Below the pieces are notes generated by a model. That model saw only the letters and a program-made list of their open reading frames with translations. It had not been told where the DNA came from and did not search any database. From assembly GCA_964467325.1 (NCBI GenBank), contig CAYXSG010000001.1, positions 8,953-72,952 on the forward strand: DNA of 64,000 nt, in the 5' to 3' direction. Source of the stretch: an uncultured Candidatus Saccharibacteria bacterium (GTDB lineage Bacteria; Patescibacteriota; Minisyncoccia; Phycocordibacterales; JAKAEA01). Of the stretch, positions 19,794 through 40,178 are shown piece by piece. Position numbers and translations under genes: made by a program. Numbering within the stretch: the first letter of the stretch is position 1; each line of letters opens with the position of its first letter.

Positions 19794-20069
19794 ATGAACT
19801 CAACAATCCAAATTCGCATAGACAAAAAAGTGAAAAAAGAAGCCGACAAGACTTTCAAGGACATGGGTCTTGATCTCTCTTCCGGCATCAAGCTCTATTT
19901 ACACCAAGTCATCAAGTCGCGCTCGGTGCCTTTTACCATCCGCACGGCGAACGGTTTTACTCCGGCGCAAGAGGAAAAAATGCTTAAGGAAATAGAACAT
20001 ACCATAAAATATGGCAAAAGTTATAAAACCGTACAAGAAATGCATGACGATATTATAAATTCCAAGTAA
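19794..20069 (+). CDS. dinJ: RelB/DinJ family antitoxin
   Basis: IQIRIDKKVKKEADKTFKDMGLDLSSGIKLYLHQV resembles the DinJ RHH antitoxin. Confidence 0.7.
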   Translation: MNSTIQIRIDKKVKKEADKTFKDMGLDLSSGIKLYLHQVIKSRSVPFTIRTANGFTPAQEEKMLKEIEHTIKYGKSYKTVQEMHDDIINSK

Positions 20070-20072
20070 CAT

Positions 20073-20351
20073 ATGCTGTTAGTCAGACATTCGTCAGCCT
20101 ACAAAAAATCATTTAAAAAACTGTCAAAATCAGGAAAATTTCCCAGAGAAGAACTTGAATCTATTATCACAAAAATACAAAACAGCGAGGTTCTGGAATT
20201 AAAATACCAAGATCATTATTTGTCAGGCCCGCTTTCAGATTGCCGAGAGTGTCATATCAAGTCTGACTTATTACTAGTCTATAAAATAGAAAACAACAAT
20301 CTGGTTTTGCTGCTAGTAAACCTCGGCAGTCATTCCGACTTGTTTGATTAG
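20073..20351 (+). CDS. yafQ: YafQ/RelE family toxin (type II TA mRNA interferase)
   Basis: KYQDHYLSGPLSDCRECHIKSDLLLVYKIENNNLVLLLVNLGSHSDLF matches YafQ; 3 nt after dinJ. Confidence 0.7.
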   Translation: MLLVRHSSAYKKSFKKLSKSGKFPREELESIITKIQNSEVLELKYQDHYLSGPLSDCRECHIKSDLLLVYKIENNNLVLLLVNLGSHSDLFD

Positions 20352-28905: not shown

Positions 28906-28992
28906 GGAGGGTTCGCATAGTGGTCTAGTGCACACGCTTGGAAAGCGTGCGTGGGGCAACCCACCAAGAGTTCGAATCTCTTACCCTCCGCC
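28906..28992 (+). tRNA. tRNA-Ser (anticodon GGA), long variable arm
   Basis: Acceptor GGAGGGT/ACCCTCC; D-arm GCATAGTGGTCTAGTGC; anticodon loop TTGGAAA; T-arm GGTTCGAATCC-like; about 87 nt. Confidence 0.75.
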
Positions 28993-29032
28993 TTCGTTTC
29001 TGAAGAATTTAGTTGTATCATTAAACTCAATA

Positions 29033-30114
29033 TGAAAAACTCACAAAAAGGTTTCGTTGTGCCTTTATTAATAGCGATTATTGCGGTGTTGGTGGTAGGT
29101 GGCGTGGTCTATATTTATTCACAGAAAAAATCTGAGGTTCCTCAGGCTAATCAGCCTTTGGATAATGTACAGACAAATCAAAATCCTCAAAATAATCAAC
29201 AACCCCCTCATATTGATTCAGTTACTCCTTTTGTTGATCCAAATGGAAACACTCAATTTTCTGTTAAAGGCAGCGGGTTTTTGGGTTCAAACCCATATGT
29301 TGATGGACAAAGCGCAACGTACAGTGCAAGTAGTCTAACTGATACAGAAGTTACTTTGCTTTCTGTTAAGCAACTCGCAGTTCCAGGGAATCATTCCGTT
29401 TATTTAACAAATCCTACAACTGGGAAAAGCAATGTTTTTTCTTTTCAGTCTGGAGCGGTAAATTCTAATTCTCATTCGCAAAATAATGTCGCCAAAACTG
29501 TAAGTGTATCCGGTATGTTGCAATATACTGACTCAATTTTTGGGTTTTCGTTTTGGTACCCGGCGACATGGAGTGTTCAAAAAAAAGAAGCATTTGACAC
29601 AAATCCAGAAAAAACATATGAAGGAGGTTCGCTCATTGAGACTATAACAGTATCTCCTCCTCAAGGTTCAAGTTATGGTATTGCTATAGAAGAATTTGTC
29701 TCAGCAGATAAAAGTATTAAAGATAATTCTGTCTGTGGACCAGCAGATGGATGTCCTTCGGCTATACGTTATTATTTCGACAGTAGCATCCACACATGGA
29801 TGAAGGATTCATATTTTGACTATGGCCAATATTCGTCACCGACAAAAACCGCACCAGCCGATGTCTCAGTCAATTCAATGGGCGGACTTCATATACTACG
29901 AGGTAATGCTAGATTTGGTGATAACGTCATAGTACCACTCAGTGCGAAGAACTTTCTGGTTGTACACAATGTAGGCGTAGGAACAAATAGTATAAAATTT
30001 TTGGCGAATACGATTCTTGCTCTTGATCCGGCAGTTGCTACTCCAGTAAGTTCGGCACAGCAAATACAAACTATTCAGGCCGAGGGAAATGAATACGCTT
30101 CTTATAAATGGTAG
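29033..30114 (+). CDS. membrane-anchored secreted hypothetical protein (Q/N-rich linker, beta-rich domain)
   Basis: Start MKNSQKGFVVPLLIAIIAVLVV (signal anchor); the ORF start at 28951 overlaps the tRNA and is rejected. Confidence 0.5.
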
Positions 30115-34414: not shown

Positions 34415-34720
34415 ATGAATAGATTTTTTTTCATTTCCCTAATCATATTTATGTTGTTGGCTTTTCTTCTTGTCGGAAATACTTATGTAAAAGTTCTACG
34501 CTTTCCCGGTGGTAGTATTTGTAGTGAAGAATCAATGATTATTTGTCTACCCGTTGTTTCCACTCTTATTATATCTCTATTGGTTTCGCTATCCCTTGGT
34601 TTTATTAAAAGATCTAGAAATGTTACCCCTGTAAAACATAACTCCCTAAAATATAACCTATTAATAGTAGTTCTCGTGGTCCTAGCTTTGCAACTATTAT
34701 TTTGGTTGATTATGATATAA
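34415..34720 (+). CDS. small AT-rich membrane protein (hypothetical)
   Basis: 3 TM helices; AT-rich. Confidence 0.35.
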   Translation: MNRFFFISLIIFMLLAFLLVGNTYVKVLRFPGGSICSEESMIICLPVVSTLIISLLVSLSLGFIKRSRNVTPVKHNSLKYNLLIVVLVVLALQLLFWLIMI

Positions 34721-34781: not shown

Positions 34782-35258
34782 GTGAAAATCTACATCGCCT
34801 CTGATCATGCAGGGTTTGAGCTCAAGAAACATTTGATTGGCTATTTTGCCGAGAGCGGCATTATTCTTATAGACAAAGGGCCGTTTGCCTATGTGGCGGG
34901 CGATGATTATCCTGATTGGATTGCTAAGGCGGCAGAAGAGGTGAGTAAAAATCCGAGCGAGGCGCGGGCGATTGTGATTGGACTTTCGGGGGAAGGCGAG
35001 GCACTTGTTGCCAATAAGTTTAAAAATGTGCGCGCTGGCGTTTTTTACACGCCGATTGGAAGCGGCAAGGACGCTTTTGAAATTGTGAAGCTCATGCGCG
35101 AGCACAACGATGCAAATGTGCTCTCGCTTTCCGCAAAATTTTTGAAGAGCGAAGAAGCCGAGCGCGCCACGGATGTTTTTCTGGAAACCGAGTTTAGTGG
35201 CGACGCGCGGCACGAAAGAAGAATTGAGAAAATTACCGATTTAGAACAAGGTCGATAA
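34782..35258 (+). CDS. rpiB: ribose-5-phosphate isomerase B
   Basis: KIYIASDHAGFELKKHL RpiB/LacAB signature; GTG start overlapping AGGAGG. Confidence 0.85.
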   Translation: MKIYIASDHAGFELKKHLIGYFAESGIILIDKGPFAYVAGDDYPDWIAKAAEEVSKNPSEARAIVIGLSGEGEALVANKFKNVRAGVFYTPIGSGKDAFEIVKLMREHNDANVLSLSAKFLKSEEAERATDVFLETEFSGDARHERRIEKITDLEQGR

Positions 35259-35264
35259 ATTTAT

Positions 35265-36074
35265 ATGTTTTCTGAAAAAAGCCTATTTGAAAAAGAGGGT
35301 TTACATTTAGAAAAAGAAAGAGTTTTAACCTACTCAAAACTTTTTTGTCCCCTAGGTTGTAAATACTGTTTTGCCGAAGATTTAGAAGGACGTTCAGGTG
35401 ATAAAGTATCTTATTTATCAGAAGATCAGTTGAATGCCTTAGAAAAAATTCCACCGGAAATTAGCTTGATAATGTTAGGCTGTGATACAGAGTTTTTTCA
35501 ATCAAAAGAAGGTTCATTGGAGATTTTAGAAAGATTATCCCATTCCGATAGAGATATTTCTATTGTAACTAAGATGGATTTAGATTCAGATTTTGTAAAA
35601 TCACTTAAAAATTTTGATGAGGTTTTAAATAAAAATAACAAATCACTTTTTGTTTCTTTTTCTATACCTTGTTTGGATTCTGCAAAAATTTGGGAACCAG
35701 GAGCTCCTGACCCAAACGCAAGAATTGAATCAATGAAAATAGTTCATGATGAAGGTATAAAATCTTTTGTAGCAATAAGACCATTGCTTCCTAGTGTTCC
35801 TGATGATGAATTAGAGAGAATAGTTGATATGACTAAAGGTTATTCGCAAGGTTATTATTCTGGGCCACTATATGTGAAAAATTTAGACCAAGGTTTAGTA
35901 GATACAAATAATCCGGAATTAAAAATTGAATTGGTTCGGCCAGATTGGATGCCTGAAGGTAACGAATTTTATAGAATCCAAAAAGATGGTCAAATGGAAT
36001 TTCTAAGAGACACAATAATTAAAAGCGGAAATATTTTGTTTGAAGGAGCTGCTGATGCCATAGCTCACATTTAA
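35265..36074 (+). CDS. radical SAM domain protein (CX3CX2C), AT-rich, function unknown
   Basis: FCPLGCKYCFA motif at residues 27-36; about 30% GC vs about 50% flanks. Confidence 0.6.
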   Translation: MFSEKSLFEKEGLHLEKERVLTYSKLFCPLGCKYCFAEDLEGRSGDKVSYLSEDQLNALEKIPPEISLIMLGCDTEFFQSKEGSLEILERLSHSDRDISIVTKMDLDSDFVKSLKNFDEVLNKNNKSLFVSFSIPCLDSAKIWEPGAPDPNARIESMKIVHDEGIKSFVAIRPLLPSVPDDELERIVDMTKGYSQGYYSGPLYVKNLDQGLVDTNNPELKIELVRPDWMPEGNEFYRIQKDGQMEFLRDTIIKSGNILFEGAADAIAHI

Positions 36075-36084
36075 GGTAAATAAA

Positions 36085-36600
36085 ATGAAAAACATAGAGT
36101 TAAAAGTCAAAGCACCGAATCTATCAAAAATTAAACCTGTTTTGAAAAAAATTGGTGCAAAATACGTTGAAACTCTTAAACAGGTTGATACCTACTATAA
36201 ATGCAATGAGGGTAGGTTAAAAACAAGGGAAATAAACAATAATAATTTTGAATTGATTTTTTATAGAAGAGAAAACAAAAAAGAATCAAAAATATCTGAT
36301 TATGAGATTCTTAAAATGAGCTATCCTCATAGACAGAAATATAAAAATATTTTAAATGAAATATTTGGGAAGGTCGTTGTGGTTAAAAAAGAGCGGTTGC
36401 TTTGGATTTACAAAAATACAAGAATTCATCTTGATTGCGTAGAAGATTTAGGAAATTTTTTAGAATTGGAAACCATAGTAAGTGATACTTTAAGCAAAGC
36501 CAAAAAAGAATATAAGGAAATTACAGATTATTTAAATATTAGCAATTTTAAAAAAATCGCCAGTTCATACAGCGATTTATTAATCTTAGCAAAACCATGA
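36085..36600 (+). CDS. CYTH/triphosphate-tunnel-metalloenzyme domain protein (CyaB/thiamine-triphosphatase-like), AT-rich
   Basis: IELKVKAPN...QVDTYY...RLKTRE...ELIFYRRE...LELETIV pattern of the CYTH fold; stop overlaps rpe start (ATGA). Confidence 0.55.
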   Translation: MKNIELKVKAPNLSKIKPVLKKIGAKYVETLKQVDTYYKCNEGRLKTREINNNNFELIFYRRENKKESKISDYEILKMSYPHRQKYKNILNEIFGKVVVVKKERLLWIYKNTRIHLDCVEDLGNFLELETIVSDTLSKAKKEYKEITDYLNISNFKKIASSYSDLLILAKP

Positions 36601-37292
36601 TTGAAATTATTCCGGCGATAATGCCGCGCAGTTGGGAAGATTTGGAAGGGGAAGTGGCGCGCGTGGCGCCTTTTGTTGGGAAGGTGCAGATTGACGTCAT
36701 GGATGGCAAGTTTGTGAAAAATAAAAGCTGGCCATACATGAAAGGCCGCGCCGGTGATAAATTTTTTAAGCTTCTTCAAGTGGAAGAAATTGGCTTGCCG
36801 AGCTGGCAGGATGTGGATTTTGAAGCTGATATGATGATTGATAAGCCGGAAGAGGAAATTGAAAAATGGATTGCGGCTGGCATGGCACGGATTATTGTGC
36901 ACGTTGAAAGCACGAAAAAACTGTCAGAAATTATCAAAATTTTTCAATTGCATAACGCACACGAAGTTGGAATTGAGCTTGGACTTGCCTTAAATCCAGA
37001 CACTTCAACAGACCAAATTTTGCCTTTTCTTGAGGATATTCAGTTTGTGCAGTTTATGGGGATTGATCGGATTGGTTTGCAAGGCCAACCTTTTGACGAA
37101 AAAGTTTTGGATAAAATTCGCGAGTTTCACAATGCGCATCCGGAAATGGTGATAAGTGTGGATGGCGGCGTCAATTTTGAAGACGCGCACGCGCTGGTTG
37201 AAGCGGGTGCGCGGCACTTAGTCTCTGGTTCAGCAATTTTAGAAAGTACGGACATTGCCGAAGCTGTGGAAAGATTCAAAAAAATAGTATAA
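36597..37292 (+). CDS. rpe: ribulose-phosphate 3-epimerase
   Basis: IDVMDGKFVKN, VHVEST, LNPDT, ISVDGGV, SGSAI motifs. Confidence 0.75.
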   Translation: MIEIIPAIMPRSWEDLEGEVARVAPFVGKVQIDVMDGKFVKNKSWPYMKGRAGDKFFKLLQVEEIGLPSWQDVDFEADMMIDKPEEEIEKWIAAGMARIIVHVESTKKLSEIIKIFQLHNAHEVGIELGLALNPDTSTDQILPFLEDIQFVQFMGIDRIGLQGQPFDEKVLDKIREFHNAHPEMVISVDGGVNFEDAHALVEAGARHLVSGSAILESTDIAEAVERFKKIV

Positions 37293-37299
37293 TAGGCGA

Positions 37300-38166
37300 G
37301 TGAGTTTGACTGATTTTGAAATTAAAAGTTTGGAGAAAAAAGCCAACGAGATTCGCGTTTCAATAATTGAAATGCTTTTGGAAGCCGGCTCAGGCCACAC
37401 CGCGGGACCTTTGGGCATGGCGGACATTTTCACCGCGCTCTATTTTCACATTTTAAAACACGACGCAACTAATCCTTCTTGGAACGAGCGCGACCGACTC
37501 GTGCTTTCCAATGGCCACATTTGTCCGGTTTTGTACGCCGCGATGGCGCACGCCGGTTATTTTCCAATTAAAGAACTGAAAACTTTGCGCAAATTTGGCT
37601 CGCGCTTGCAAGGCCATCCGCATCGCGATTTTCTGCCGATGTTGGAAACGAGCTCTGGGCCACTTGGCTCCGGCCTTTCGCAAGCGGTTGGCTTGGCGCT
37701 TGCCGATAAAATTGACGACTACAAGCCGGCCGGCCGATTTATTTATTGTTTAATGAGCGACGGCGAGCTCGACGAAGGTCAAAGCTGGGAAGCGGCGCTT
37801 TTGGCGGGAAAAAACAAATTACACAATTTGATTGCGATTATTGACCGCAACAATATTCAGATTGACGGCTTCACCGAAGATGTGATGCCGCTTGAGCCGC
37901 TGCGCGCAAAGTGGGAAGCGTTCGGCTGGCACGTTTTGGAAATTGACGGACACAATTTCAATGAGATTGCTGGCGCGGTAGAGCAAGCGAAAGCGATTTT
38001 TGAAAAGCCGTCCATGATTATTGCGCATACCATTCCTGGCAAAGGCGTGAAAGAATTTGAACGCAAATACGAATGGCACGGCAAACCGCCAAACGCCGCC
38101 GAAGCCGCGATGGCGCTCAAAGAGCTCCGCACTTTAGGCGGCAAAATTAAAAGCGAGCATGAGTAA
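37300..38166 (+). CDS. tktA: transketolase, N-terminal (TPP-binding) subunit
   Basis: GSGHTAGPLGMADIF...SNGH...DGELDEGQSWEA transketolase N-terminal motifs; GTG start. Confidence 0.85.
   Translation: MSLTDFEIKSLEKKANEIRVSIIEMLLEAGSGHTAGPLGMADIFTALYFHILKHDATNPSWNERDRLVLSNGHICPVLYAAMAHAGYFPIKELKTLRKFGSRLQGHPHRDFLPMLETSSGPLGSGLSQAVGLALADKIDDYKPAGRFIYCLMSDGELDEGQSWEAALLAGKNKLHNLIAIIDRNNIQIDGFTEDVMPLEPLRAKWEAFGWHVLEIDGHNFNEIAGAVEQAKAIFEKPSMIIAHTIPGKGVKEFERKYEWHGKPPNAAEAAMALKELRTLGGKIKSEHE
38144..38162 (+). repeat. 19-bp direct repeat, copy 1 (3' end of tktN)
   Basis: aaattaaaagcgagcatga identical to 38804..38822. Confidence 0.7.
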
Positions 38167-38215: not shown

Positions 38216-38740
38216 GTGATGAAGGATTATATAAAAGGGCGAGCGGGAGTTTTCATTGATGCTGCCAATATTTTGTATTCACAACAAACTCTTGGCTGGA
38301 AAGTTGATTATAAAAAACTCAAAGACTATTTAATAAACCAATCATTTTCTGCGGTTTTTTATTATTACACTGGAAAAGTTGGTTCACTTGAAAACCAACT
38401 GAAATTTATTAATAAGCTTGAGAATTATGGGTACGTTGTGATAGCAAAAGAAGTTAAGTTCATTAGAACAAAAGATGGCAAACAAATTCCCAAAGGTAAT
38501 CTTGATATTGAGCTTGCGCTAGACGCTTTTAGATTTAAAGATACGTACGATACGTTGCTTCTTTTTTCCGGTGATTCTGATTTCGCTTATCTTCTGGATC
38601 TTTTGAAGGAATACGGTAAGAAAACTTTGGTTTTTTCAACCAGAGGACACATTTCAAAAGAATTGCTAGAAAGAGCAAAGTATATTGATCTTCAAAAACT
38701 AAGAAGCTTTATTGAGCTAAAATTCAAAGAGCCACGCTAG
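38216..38740 (+). CDS. NYN domain (PIN-like) putative ribonuclease, AT-rich insertion
   Basis: VFIDAANILY...GNLDIELALDA...LFSGDSDFAYLLDLLKEYGKKTLVF match the NYN/LabA fold. Confidence 0.7.
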   Translation: MMKDYIKGRAGVFIDAANILYSQQTLGWKVDYKKLKDYLINQSFSAVFYYYTGKVGSLENQLKFINKLENYGYVVIAKEVKFIRTKDGKQIPKGNLDIELALDAFRFKDTYDTLLLFSGDSDFAYLLDLLKEYGKKTLVFSTRGHISKELLERAKYIDLQKLRSFIELKFKEPR

Positions 38741-38803: not shown

Positions 38804-38822
38804 AAATTAAAAGCGAGCATGA
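38804..38822 (+). repeat. 19-bp direct repeat, copy 2
   Basis: aaattaaaagcgagcatga duplicate of the tktN 3' end, 3' of the NYN gene. Confidence 0.7.
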
Positions 38823-38844
38823 ATAATTAATAAATTTAAATAAT

Positions 38845-39174
38845 ATGAATGAAAATAAAAAATGGTATCTTTCAAAAGGAGTTTTGTTCTTTGTTGGGTA
38901 TGTAGTTATAACAATAATATACGGATTTGTAACAGTGAATCAGGAACTAATTAATTCCTTACCATTATCACTTTTAACATTTCCTATGGGTATTTTAGGT
39001 GGTTTTTTGATTTTTGGTTGGCCAGCCATAATTATAACTGCAATAACTGCTCTTTTTATGGAAAGGTTTGTTTCTAAAAACCAAAAATTACCTATTTATA
39101 TTTTTTCATACCTAGTAGCGTTGCCTTTTATTTTCTGTTTCATTTATTATTTGTCGATTCATAATATTCGTTAA
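38845..39174 (+). CDS. small AT-rich membrane protein (hypothetical)
   Basis: 3 TM helices; TAATG overlap with tktC start. Confidence 0.4.
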   Translation: MNENKKWYLSKGVLFFVGYVVITIIYGFVTVNQELINSLPLSLLTFPMGILGGFLIFGWPAIIITAITALFMERFVSKNQKLPIYIFSYLVALPFIFCFIYYLSIHNIR

Positions 39175-40178
39175 TGCTAAATCCTCTTCTAAAACTCAAT
39201 CCTAAAATTTTTGACGAAAGTGTGGAGCAGACGCCGATTCGGCGCGGGTTTGGCGAGGGATTTTTGGCGGCGGGCGAAGCAGATAAAAATGTGGTGGGAC
39301 TGTGCGCCGATTTGACCGAGAGCACCCAGATGCATCTTTTCAAAGAAAAATTTCCGGAGCGGTTTATTGAGGTGGGCGTTGCTGAGCAAAATCTCGCGAG
39401 CGTGGCTTCCGGCTTGGTGGCGGCTGGAAAAATTCCTTTTATTTCTTCTTATGCCATGTTTTCTCCGGGCCGAAATTGGGAGCAGATTCGCACGACCATT
39501 TGCTACAACGACCGGCCGGTGAAAATTGCCGGCTCGCACGCGGGGATTTCCGTGGGACCGGACGGCGGCACGCACCAAGCGCTGGAAGATATCGCGCTTA
39601 CCAGAGTAATTCCGAGAATGGTGGTGATTTCGCCATGCGACGCGGTGGAAGCGCTCAAAGCCACTTTAGCAGCAGCGAAAACCAAAACGCCGGTTTACAT
39701 CCGACTCGCACGCGAAAAAACGCCGATTATGACTTCGGCGCACACGCCTTTTGAAATTGGCAAAGCGGAAATTTTTTTCCAGCCGATTGCCGGCCGTGCT
39801 GAAGTGGGGATTGTGGCGACCGGTGCACTGCTCTACAAAGCGCTGAAAGTGGCGCGCGATTTGGAAAAAGAAAAAATTGGCGTGACGGTTCTAAATCTCT
39901 CAACCATTAAACCTTTAGACGAAAAAGCGTTGCTTCGTCTTGCGGAAGACACGAAGGCAATAGTGACGGTGGAAGAGCATCAAATTGCTGGCGGCATGGG
40001 CTCAGCGGTGGCTGAGTTTCTCGCCAAGCACCGGCCAGTACTGATGGAATTTATTGGCGTGCACGACAAATTTGGCCAATCAGGCAAGCCGGAAGAACTC
40101 ATAGAATTTTACGGCATGGGAGAAAAAGCCATCAAAGAAGCGGTGAAAAAGGTTTTGAAGAGAAAATTACAGAAATAA
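39174..40178 (+). CDS. tktB: transketolase, C-terminal (pyrimidine-binding) subunit
   Basis: RRGFGEGFLAAGEADKNVVGLCADL...ISPCDAVE...HQIAGGMGS transketolase C-terminal motifs. Confidence 0.85.
   Translation: MLNPLLKLNPKIFDESVEQTPIRRGFGEGFLAAGEADKNVVGLCADLTESTQMHLFKEKFPERFIEVGVAEQNLASVASGLVAAGKIPFISSYAMFSPGRNWEQIRTTICYNDRPVKIAGSHAGISVGPDGGTHQALEDIALTRVIPRMVVISPCDAVEALKATLAAAKTKTPVYIRLAREKTPIMTSAHTPFEIGKAEIFFQPIAGRAEVGIVATGALLYKALKVARDLEKEKIGVTVLNLSTIKPLDEKALLRLAEDTKAIVTVEEHQIAGGMGSAVAEFLAKHRPVLMEFIGVHDKFGQSGKPEELIEFYGMGEKAIKEAVKKVLKRKLQK

Follow-up and report, generated by a model that had tools for sequence, protein, structure and literature searches.

Several described systems couple a radical S-adenosylmethionine (radical-SAM) step to an enzyme that acts on nucleotide phosphates. 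In two precedents, PhnM/PhnJ (C-P lyase pathway) and MoaA/MoaC, the partner of the radical-SAM enzyme cleaves or cyclises a ribose-5'-triphosphate, and prokaryotic viperins with nucleotide-kinase partners likewise combine a radical-SAM enzyme with one that handles nucleotide phosphates. Here we analyze a two-gene cassette from an uncultured Candidatus Saccharibacteria bacterium (contig CAYXSG010000001.1, 64,000 nucleotides, hereafter the window), in which a radical-SAM gene (35265-36074, + strand, 269 amino acids) is followed by a gene of the CYTH or triphosphate tunnel metalloenzyme (TTM) superfamily (36085-36600, + strand, 171 amino acids). An earlier reading made from the letters of the window alone (the sequence-only reading) had singled out these two co-oriented open reading frames (ORFs) between rpiB and rpe, and both are located as claimed. 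PhnM/PhnJ and MoaA/MoaC belong to unrelated families and no genes of their pathways accompany the window pair, and the likeness to viperin systems extends to distant relatives of the radical-SAM protein that have kinase neighbors and NUDIX fusions. In the searchable literature we found no described pairing of a radical-SAM enzyme with a CYTH enzyme, in agreement with the sequence-only reading, and the module appears to be undescribed.

The two genes are strictly linked. In a scan of one genome per species we found 38 radical-SAM loci, nearly all labelled Patescibacteria, and the CYTH gene directly follows the radical-SAM gene on the same strand in all 37 loci in which the contig continues. The flanking genes are otherwise unrelated from locus to locus, two independent contexts (L004 and L006) have the same gene arrangement, and no third gene is conserved around the pair, the commonest neighbor being a histidine kinase (7 loci). 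Anchoring the CYTH start on the invariant MKNIELK shows that, of 51 non-redundant loci, 41 have a radical-SAM stop that overlaps the CYTH start, in most cases by 4 or 14 nucleotides. In the window, a Shine-Dalgarno-like AAGGT (36073-36077, + strand) overlaps the radical-SAM stop and lies 7-8 nucleotides 5' of the CYTH start. Fragments aside, there is no fusion of the two proteins among 150 representatives. The pairing, whose co-occurrence across genomes had been proposed as a test, is thus conserved far beyond chance, and the two genes form a conserved module. Homologs of each protein number in the hundreds, the nearest being 55-60% identical, and almost all come from metagenome-assembled genomes (MAGs) of Patescibacteria or from metagenomes. 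The pair also stands on a few contigs with other labels, namely Micrarchaeota of the DPANN group (L026), Elusimicrobia (L042), Eggerthellaceae (L036), Acidobacteriaceae (L020) and Gammaproteobacteria (L011, 29% GC), and these rare labels may reflect either transfer between phyla or mis-binning.

Linkage in the reverse direction is looser. We seeded 68 metagenome loci, all having room upstream, with the CYTH protein, and the radical-SAM gene is present at 37 of them and is not found within 5 kb at the other 31. CYTH genes with and without the radical-SAM partner intermingle on a neighbor-joining tree. The radical-SAM gene is decayed in five loci (by frameshift, in-frame stop, internal deletion, N-terminal loss, or reduction to a remnant), and in two CYTH-only loci a relic of its 3' end persists just upstream of the CYTH gene (L123 2251-2364 and L088 514-567). 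This implies that the radical-SAM gene never occurs without the CYTH gene and has been lost repeatedly, and that the CYTH enzyme is useful alone. The dependence is therefore asymmetric, in that only the radical-SAM gene needs its partner. The disrupted or remnant copies are found beside intact CYTH genes (L040, L024, L043, L042 and L045), and some of them are perhaps errors of MAG assembly.

The 269-residue protein is a member of the radical-SAM superfamily (Pfam Radical_SAM, PF04055; 1.4e-9, 38.7 bits against a cutoff of 29.5), with a partial TIM-barrel fold in a confident AlphaFold2 model (pLDDT 90.5). The canonical CX3CX2C cluster claimed for its N-terminus is present as FCPLGCKYCF (C28, C32 and C35; motif codons 35346-35369, + strand) and would bind the [4Fe-4S] cluster and SAM; 28 family members all have C28, C32, Y34, C35 and F36. 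Its other cysteines are C73 and C136, so that it carries neither a SPASM nor a twitch cluster, and by sequence it falls outside the housekeeping families QueE, NrdG and PFL-AE, with which firm clustering would have counted against the sequence-only reading. Its matches to NCBIfam models are weak and partial: PA0069, Rv2578c and rSAM_mob_pairB gave 46.9, 40.6 and 36.4 bits where the cutoffs are 360, 430 and 410 bits, short by a factor of 8-10, and place it in none of these families, all of which consist of uncharacterized SPL-like (spore photoproduct lyase-like) COG1533 proteins. Weak PA0069-family matches recur in 52 of 59 members of the wider radical-SAM family, PA0069-family genes were found by tblastn at about 28% identity, and the nearest named families carry the label 'DNA repair photolyase'.

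The closest solved fold is that of spore photoproduct lyase (SPL; SplB, PDB 4fhc/4k9r), and we describe the protein as a minimal SPL-like, COG1533-type enzyme. A profile alignment to 4k9r, itself marginal (E 0.007), puts the VTK, SIxS and EPxxxxxxxR motifs in register with SPL and pairs C73 with the cysteine of SPL 'EAACTSD', which we take to be the hydrogen-atom donor (Cys141 in B. subtilis and Cys140 in G. thermodenitrificans). Cys73 (codon 35481-35483, + strand) lies in an MLGCDTEF motif just after strand beta2 and is invariant in the core family, and this position in the alignment suggests that it may be the equivalent of the SPL catalytic cysteine and a candidate hydrogen-atom donor. The window protein is 13% identical to SPL, is shorter (269 against about 340 residues), and is without the extra C-terminal elements; the SPL model TIGR04070 does not match it at E <= 0.1, and matches one of the 59 wider-family members (2e-4). 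The tyrosine relay of SPL (CxYCY, beside the third cluster cysteine), which serves to regenerate SAM, is CxYCF in this family, in which the first tyrosine (Y34) is kept and the second is replaced by the invariant F36. The family is also acidic, with a median isoelectric point (pI) of 5.6 and a net charge of -17 for the window copy. With phenylalanine at the second relay position, about 70 residues fewer and an acidic character, the protein is best regarded as SPL-like in its chemistry and not as an SPL. A CYTH partner, which is obligate for the window family, is not known for SPL. The large SPL-like branch of COG1533 is functionally dark, and a 269-residue protein with an obligate partner and a candidate catalytic cysteine offers a handle on it.

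The second protein is a CYTH/TTM enzyme, as the sequence-only reading had it. It matches Pfam CYTH (PF01928) at 3.1e-15 (56.9 bits, cutoff 23.2), and its AlphaFold2 model (pLDDT 92.7) has the eight-stranded tunnel fold, with PH1012 (2dc4) and SaTTM (7ns9) as the top Foldseek matches (TM-score 0.82, probability 1.00). It resembles the archaeal-type TTMs SaTTM (Saci_0718), PH1012 and Pfu-838710 in this fold (TM-scores 0.80-0.84), in its DxY water-positioning motif, ExE metal motif and basic tunnel residues, and in its length of about 170 residues. E127xE129 (codons 36463-36471, + strand, on strand beta8), K46xR48 and D35xY37 do not vary in the family, and their counterparts in SaTTM are E135/E137, R56/R58 and the DxY motif. 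It differs from these TTMs at the hallmark ExExK, where the first glutamate is replaced by asparagine while the second glutamate and the lysine are kept, so that all 100 of 100 family members carry NxExK (N3-I-E5-L-K7, codons 36091-36105, + strand), which aligns with EIEVK of 2dc4. A lysine replaces the central arginine of xRxR, the family is extremely basic (median pI 9.95, net charge about +18), it is largely restricted to Patescibacteria, and about half of its members are coupled to a radical-SAM gene.

Homologs of this protein are often annotated as class IV adenylate cyclases, and class IV cyclase was also one of the two patterns to which the sequence-only reading had assigned it. CyaB and the Yersinia class IV cyclase (YpAC-IV) do belong to the same superfamily, and YpAC-IV is a structural neighbor of lower rank. 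According to Vogt et al. 2021 (PMC8233210), class IV cyclases are recognized by an HF motif placed four residues N-terminal to ExExK, by ExA on beta8 where hydrolases have ExE, and by a small residue at the position of the central arginine of xRxR. All three determinants fail here: the HF motif is impossible because the protein starts M-K-N-I-E-L-K, so that the HFxxxxExExK extension is absent; beta8 carries ExE; and the gatekeeper K46 is basic. The hydrolase features of the same rules (the second ExE glutamate, basic xRxR residues and DxY) are all present, and the cyaB model TIGR00318 gave 50.0 bits, below its cutoff of 57.95. We therefore reject the cyclase identity and predict a triphosphate hydrolase, by which a widespread annotation would be corrected, since the motifs are of hydrolase type. 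The other pattern, that of thiamine triphosphatase, does not hold either; the aromatic residue of W/YxRxR, which stacks on the thiazolium ring, is missing, its position being occupied by R44 and varying among R, H, K and L.

Clues to the substrate come from the relatives of both proteins. An exhaustive profile search with the radical-SAM family gave 1485 cluster representatives at E <= 1e-3, of which 43 lie below 1e-30. Among the distant relatives, several are fused to NUDIX (P0258, P0274, P0277 and P0352); C-terminal NUDIX fusions are found in the Asgard archaeon Promethearchaeum syntrophicum (L126 7001-8320, CP042905.2) and in metagenomes. In two loci a gene for a P-loop kinase (AAA_18/AAA_33) overlaps the start of the radical-SAM-NUDIX fusion gene (L127 6424-8296 and L128 1566-3438). 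Other distant relatives are fused to an N-terminal 'GT4-conflict' glycosyltransferase (about 900 residues) or to a GFO/IDH/MocA oxidoreductase, and one core-family member, its cluster-binding region lost, is fused to a 2H phosphoesterase (these fusions are proteins P0332, P0343, P0360 and P0243). On the CYTH side, the stand-alone gene is found in an operon of the form dCMP deaminase-dUTPase-CYTH-(two unknown genes)-ThyA-NTPase_I-T (L092 4104-8856; also L081, L086 and L068), a setting that suggests a role of the CYTH subfamily in metabolism of the (deoxy)nucleotide pool, and some stand-alone CYTH genes adjoin NUDIX genes. Together, the NUDIX fusions, the overlapping kinase genes and the CYTH operons make a phosphorylated, nucleotide-type substrate likely, and the partner phosphohydrolase, CYTH or NUDIX, would have an equivalent role in each case. 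The obligate CYTH partner itself points to a phosphorylated substrate for the radical-SAM enzyme. Of the nucleotide-modifying or alarmone-generating, possibly antiviral module that the sequence-only reading had imagined, the nucleotide role is thus plausible, while the alarmone and antiviral parts are unsupported.

The explanation that we favor, with a confidence that falls slightly short of even, is that of an accessory, transferable module of two enzymes. An SPL-like radical-SAM enzyme, a lyase or isomerase, and a triphosphatase of the tunnel type would act one after the other on a molecule of nucleotide type, and the acidic first protein and the basic second one probably form a complex. The cassette in the window would be one copy of this translationally coupled Patescibacteria module, transcribed by the rpiB-rpe operon of its host. 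The radical-SAM enzyme would cleave SAM at the [4Fe-4S] cluster to give a 5'-deoxyadenosyl radical, which would take a hydrogen from the substrate; a rearrangement of lyase or isomerase type would follow, and Cys73 would quench the product radical. The CYTH enzyme would hydrolyze a triphosphate and make no cAMP. Both enzymes may catalyze consecutive steps on one phosphorylated small molecule of nucleotide type, most likely a (deoxy)nucleoside triphosphate or a derivative, possibly of a pyrimidine, with the hydrolase either readying the substrate of the radical enzyme or processing its product; the complementary charges of the two proteins suggest that they may form a complex. The accessory function would then lie in the processing, salvage or modification of the nucleotide pool. 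Patescibacteria have tiny genomes and depend on nucleotides that they scavenge, so that a module kept tightly coupled, transferred and repeatedly pruned in them is a promising source of nucleotide chemistry yet to be discovered. A more specific form of this idea, in which the SPL-like enzyme performs radical chemistry not seen before on a free (d)NTP (for example on a pyrimidine base) and the NxExK hydrolase makes the product active or harmless, so as to yield a novel modified nucleotide, we consider unlikely; were it true, that nucleotide could serve these ultra-small symbiotic bacteria in salvage, in the modification of DNA or RNA, or in conflict with hosts or phages.

Several observations weigh against the favored explanation. 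The nucleotide-operon context is found at 3-4 of the 31 stand-alone CYTH loci, and concerns the CYTH gene and not the pair, whose own neighbors are generic housekeeping genes. The relatives with NUDIX, kinase and glycosyltransferase associations are only about 25-30% identical and may have other substrates, and both NUDIX and TTM enzymes are capable of acting on the 5' ends of RNA as well. A profile search with the radical-SAM core family identified no characterized ortholog among PDB sequences, with nothing found even at E <= 10, and only the widened profile A3 reached SPL by sequence, marginally (E 0.007-0.03). The link to SPL favors a nucleic acid as the substrate no less than a free nucleotide. 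Finally, asparagine in place of the first motif glutamate could alter or weaken catalysis by the CYTH enzyme.

The alternative that survives best, although we regard it as doubtful, is a role in the repair or modification of nucleic acids, in which the SPL-like enzyme would, like SPL, reverse or process a base lesion or cross-link in DNA or RNA, and the CYTH protein would bind the polymer or act as an RNA or DNA 5'-triphosphatase. The SPL fold with its conserved candidate catalytic cysteine and the photolyase annotation of the nearest named families are consistent with such a role, as is the charge of the CYTH protein (pI about 10). TTMs include RNA triphosphatases, and Pct1 is among the structural matches of the CYTH protein; the NUDIX domains, AAA_33-type P-loop kinases and 2H phosphoesterase of the relatives are also RNA-end-processing enzymes; and RecG neighbors the pair in two loci. 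Against it, the radical-SAM protein is acidic, falls short of SPL in length, has phenylalanine at the relay position and is not recognized by the SPL model; repair genes are not consistent neighbors of the pair and the structural neighbors of the CYTH protein are small-molecule triphosphatases.

A second alternative, which we judge decidedly unlikely, places the pair in the biosynthesis of a nucleotide-derived cofactor or metabolite (a pterin, a deazapurine, a thiamin-like compound or a sugar nucleotide), with the triphosphate removed before or after a radical rearrangement. PhnM/PhnJ, FolE-QueD-QueE and MoaA/MoaC offer analogies. The combination of a triphosphate hydrolase with a radical-SAM enzyme, the fusion of relatives to glycosyltransferase and sugar-type oxidoreductase domains, and the location of pairs in housekeeping operons all fit this role.

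An antiviral role comparable to that of viperins, in which the radical-SAM enzyme would make a chain-terminating nucleotide analog and the CYTH enzyme would tune or detoxify it, is highly unlikely. The AT-rich, accessory-like composition and patchy distribution of the pair, the analogy to pVip with nucleotide-processing partners, the 'GT4-conflict' domains fused to some distant relatives, and a weak match to a phage family (phrog_13321, 7e-11) speak for it. A viperin-like identity was rejected by sequence, with neither NF038283 nor the PADLOC pVip models matching the protein, and by best fold. The enrichment in defense islands that the sequence-only reading had raised is also not borne out. 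At 36 loci the genes around the pair encode 127 proteins of the housekeeping kind, such as histidine kinases, SecDF, aminoacyl-tRNA synthetases and cytidylate kinase, and PADLOC-DB v2 gave scattered single matches among them and, for the pair, a sub-threshold match to DUF1848 alone (E 0.004). A scan of viral contigs gave no relative and no contig with the pair, a fold search of BFVD gave generic radical-SAM matches (TM-score <= 0.60), tblastn against phages gave two weak matches, and an eLife 2020 paper on conflict systems mentions neither CYTH nor GT4 in this context. A signaling role, in which the CYTH protein would be a CyaB-type cyclase making cAMP or another cyclic nucleotide that the radical-SAM enzyme converts to an alarmone, draws on the database label, the weak TIGR00318 match and the YpAC-IV likeness, and is extremely improbable given the failed cyclase determinants, the sub-cutoff score and the hydrolases that are its closest structures.

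The position of the cassette between two genes of the pentose phosphate pathway bears on its origin. It is bounded upstream by rpiB (34782-35258, + strand; Pfam LacAB_rpiB 3.2e-35, GC 0.48) and downstream by rpe (36597-37292, + strand; Pfam Ribul_P_3_epim 2.5e-32, GC 0.44), beyond which lies tkt, split in two (37300-38166 and 39174-40178). The CYTH stop (TGA, 36598-36600) and the rpe start (ATG, 36597-36599) overlap in ATGA (36597-36600, + strand), as had been claimed, and this overlap suggests that translation of the CYTH gene is coupled to that of rpe in the host operon. We found no terminator-like site on the + strand between rpiB, the pair and rpe, and the overlap and this result together support the proposed co-transcription of the cassette with the operon. 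Both junctions are reproduced in four other assemblies (L001, L002, L003 and L046), independently assembled and 99.99-100% identical, so the arrangement is not an assembly chimera.

Within the window the pair is atypical in composition. The median GC content in the window is 0.456, and the radical-SAM and CYTH genes stand at 0.32 and 0.27. At third codon positions (GC3) the two genes have 0.19 and 0.24, where the median is 0.50 (standard deviation 0.10, 77 ORFs), and the radical-SAM gene has the lowest GC3 of the 77 ORFs. The AT-richness reported earlier is thus real, although the genome is nearer 46% GC than the 50% or so that had been given. The pair is lower in GC than its neighbors in 33 of 34 loci (by 9.6 points on average, and by 14.8 points in GC3), but stand-alone CYTH genes are AT-rich too (by 9 points, in 20 of 20 loci), so that some of the bias is a trait of the family itself. 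The GC3 deficit in the window, about -0.29, is much larger than the family mean. The foreign composition that had been proposed is accordingly upheld in so far as the pair is atypical for its operon, whereas AT-richness in a family that is AT-rich nearly everywhere is not simple proof of recent transfer. Taken alone, the AT-richness of the cassette is evidence neither of recent transfer nor of defense.

In relative L025 the pair directly follows GAPDH, and rpiB and rpe are adjacent with nothing of the pair between them, which indicates that the position in the window is derived. This rules out vertical inheritance at a fixed position; conservation at this site with host-like composition, which would have spoken against the sequence-only reading, is thus the reverse of what we observe, since the position varies and the composition is atypical. 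In the explanation that we favor, this genome took up the cassette from elsewhere, and it came to lie between rpiB and rpe. In the window the cassette is not flanked by direct or inverted repeats. Only 2 of 38 loci have a tRNA immediately upstream of the pair, which leaves tRNA-targeted integration unsupported, and a serine recombinase is near the pair in only 4 loci; a systematic location beside tRNAs or recombinases is rejected on these counts. An Rfam search for riboswitches upstream of the pair, in 11 loci and the window, gave tRNAs only.

Other AT-rich ORFs of the window comprise orphans, a YafQ toxin gene and a repeat-bracketed NYN gene, and suggest that AT-rich accessory cassettes enter this genome. 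A 23-nucleotide direct repeat (22 of 23 positions identical; 38144-38166 and 38804-38826) duplicates the 3' end of tktN, including its stop codon, and brackets an AT-rich NYN-domain gene (38216-38740; Pfam NYN 3.9e-26, PADLOC 'LabA-like NYN nuclease' 2e-15) that separates the two halves of the transketolase; the arrangement resembles the insertion of a cassette with duplication of its target. Two further small ORFs within the same operon (38845-39174, 109 amino acids, and 34415-34720, 101 amino acids) are AT-rich (GC 0.28-0.31), hydrophobic and membrane-protein-like, and have no significant family. The GAPDH-rpiB-rpe-tkt operon thus seems to be a hotspot for AT-rich insertions. Elsewhere in the window (28906-30114), an AT-rich orphan ORF of 387 amino acids (GC3 0.28, no Pfam match) comes after a tRNA gene (28906-28990) and may be another acquired element at a tRNA. 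The AT-rich YafQ/ParE-type toxin gene (20073-20351; Pfam YafQ_toxin 2.8e-26) is directly preceded by a 91-residue ORF (19794-20069), which may encode its antitoxin.

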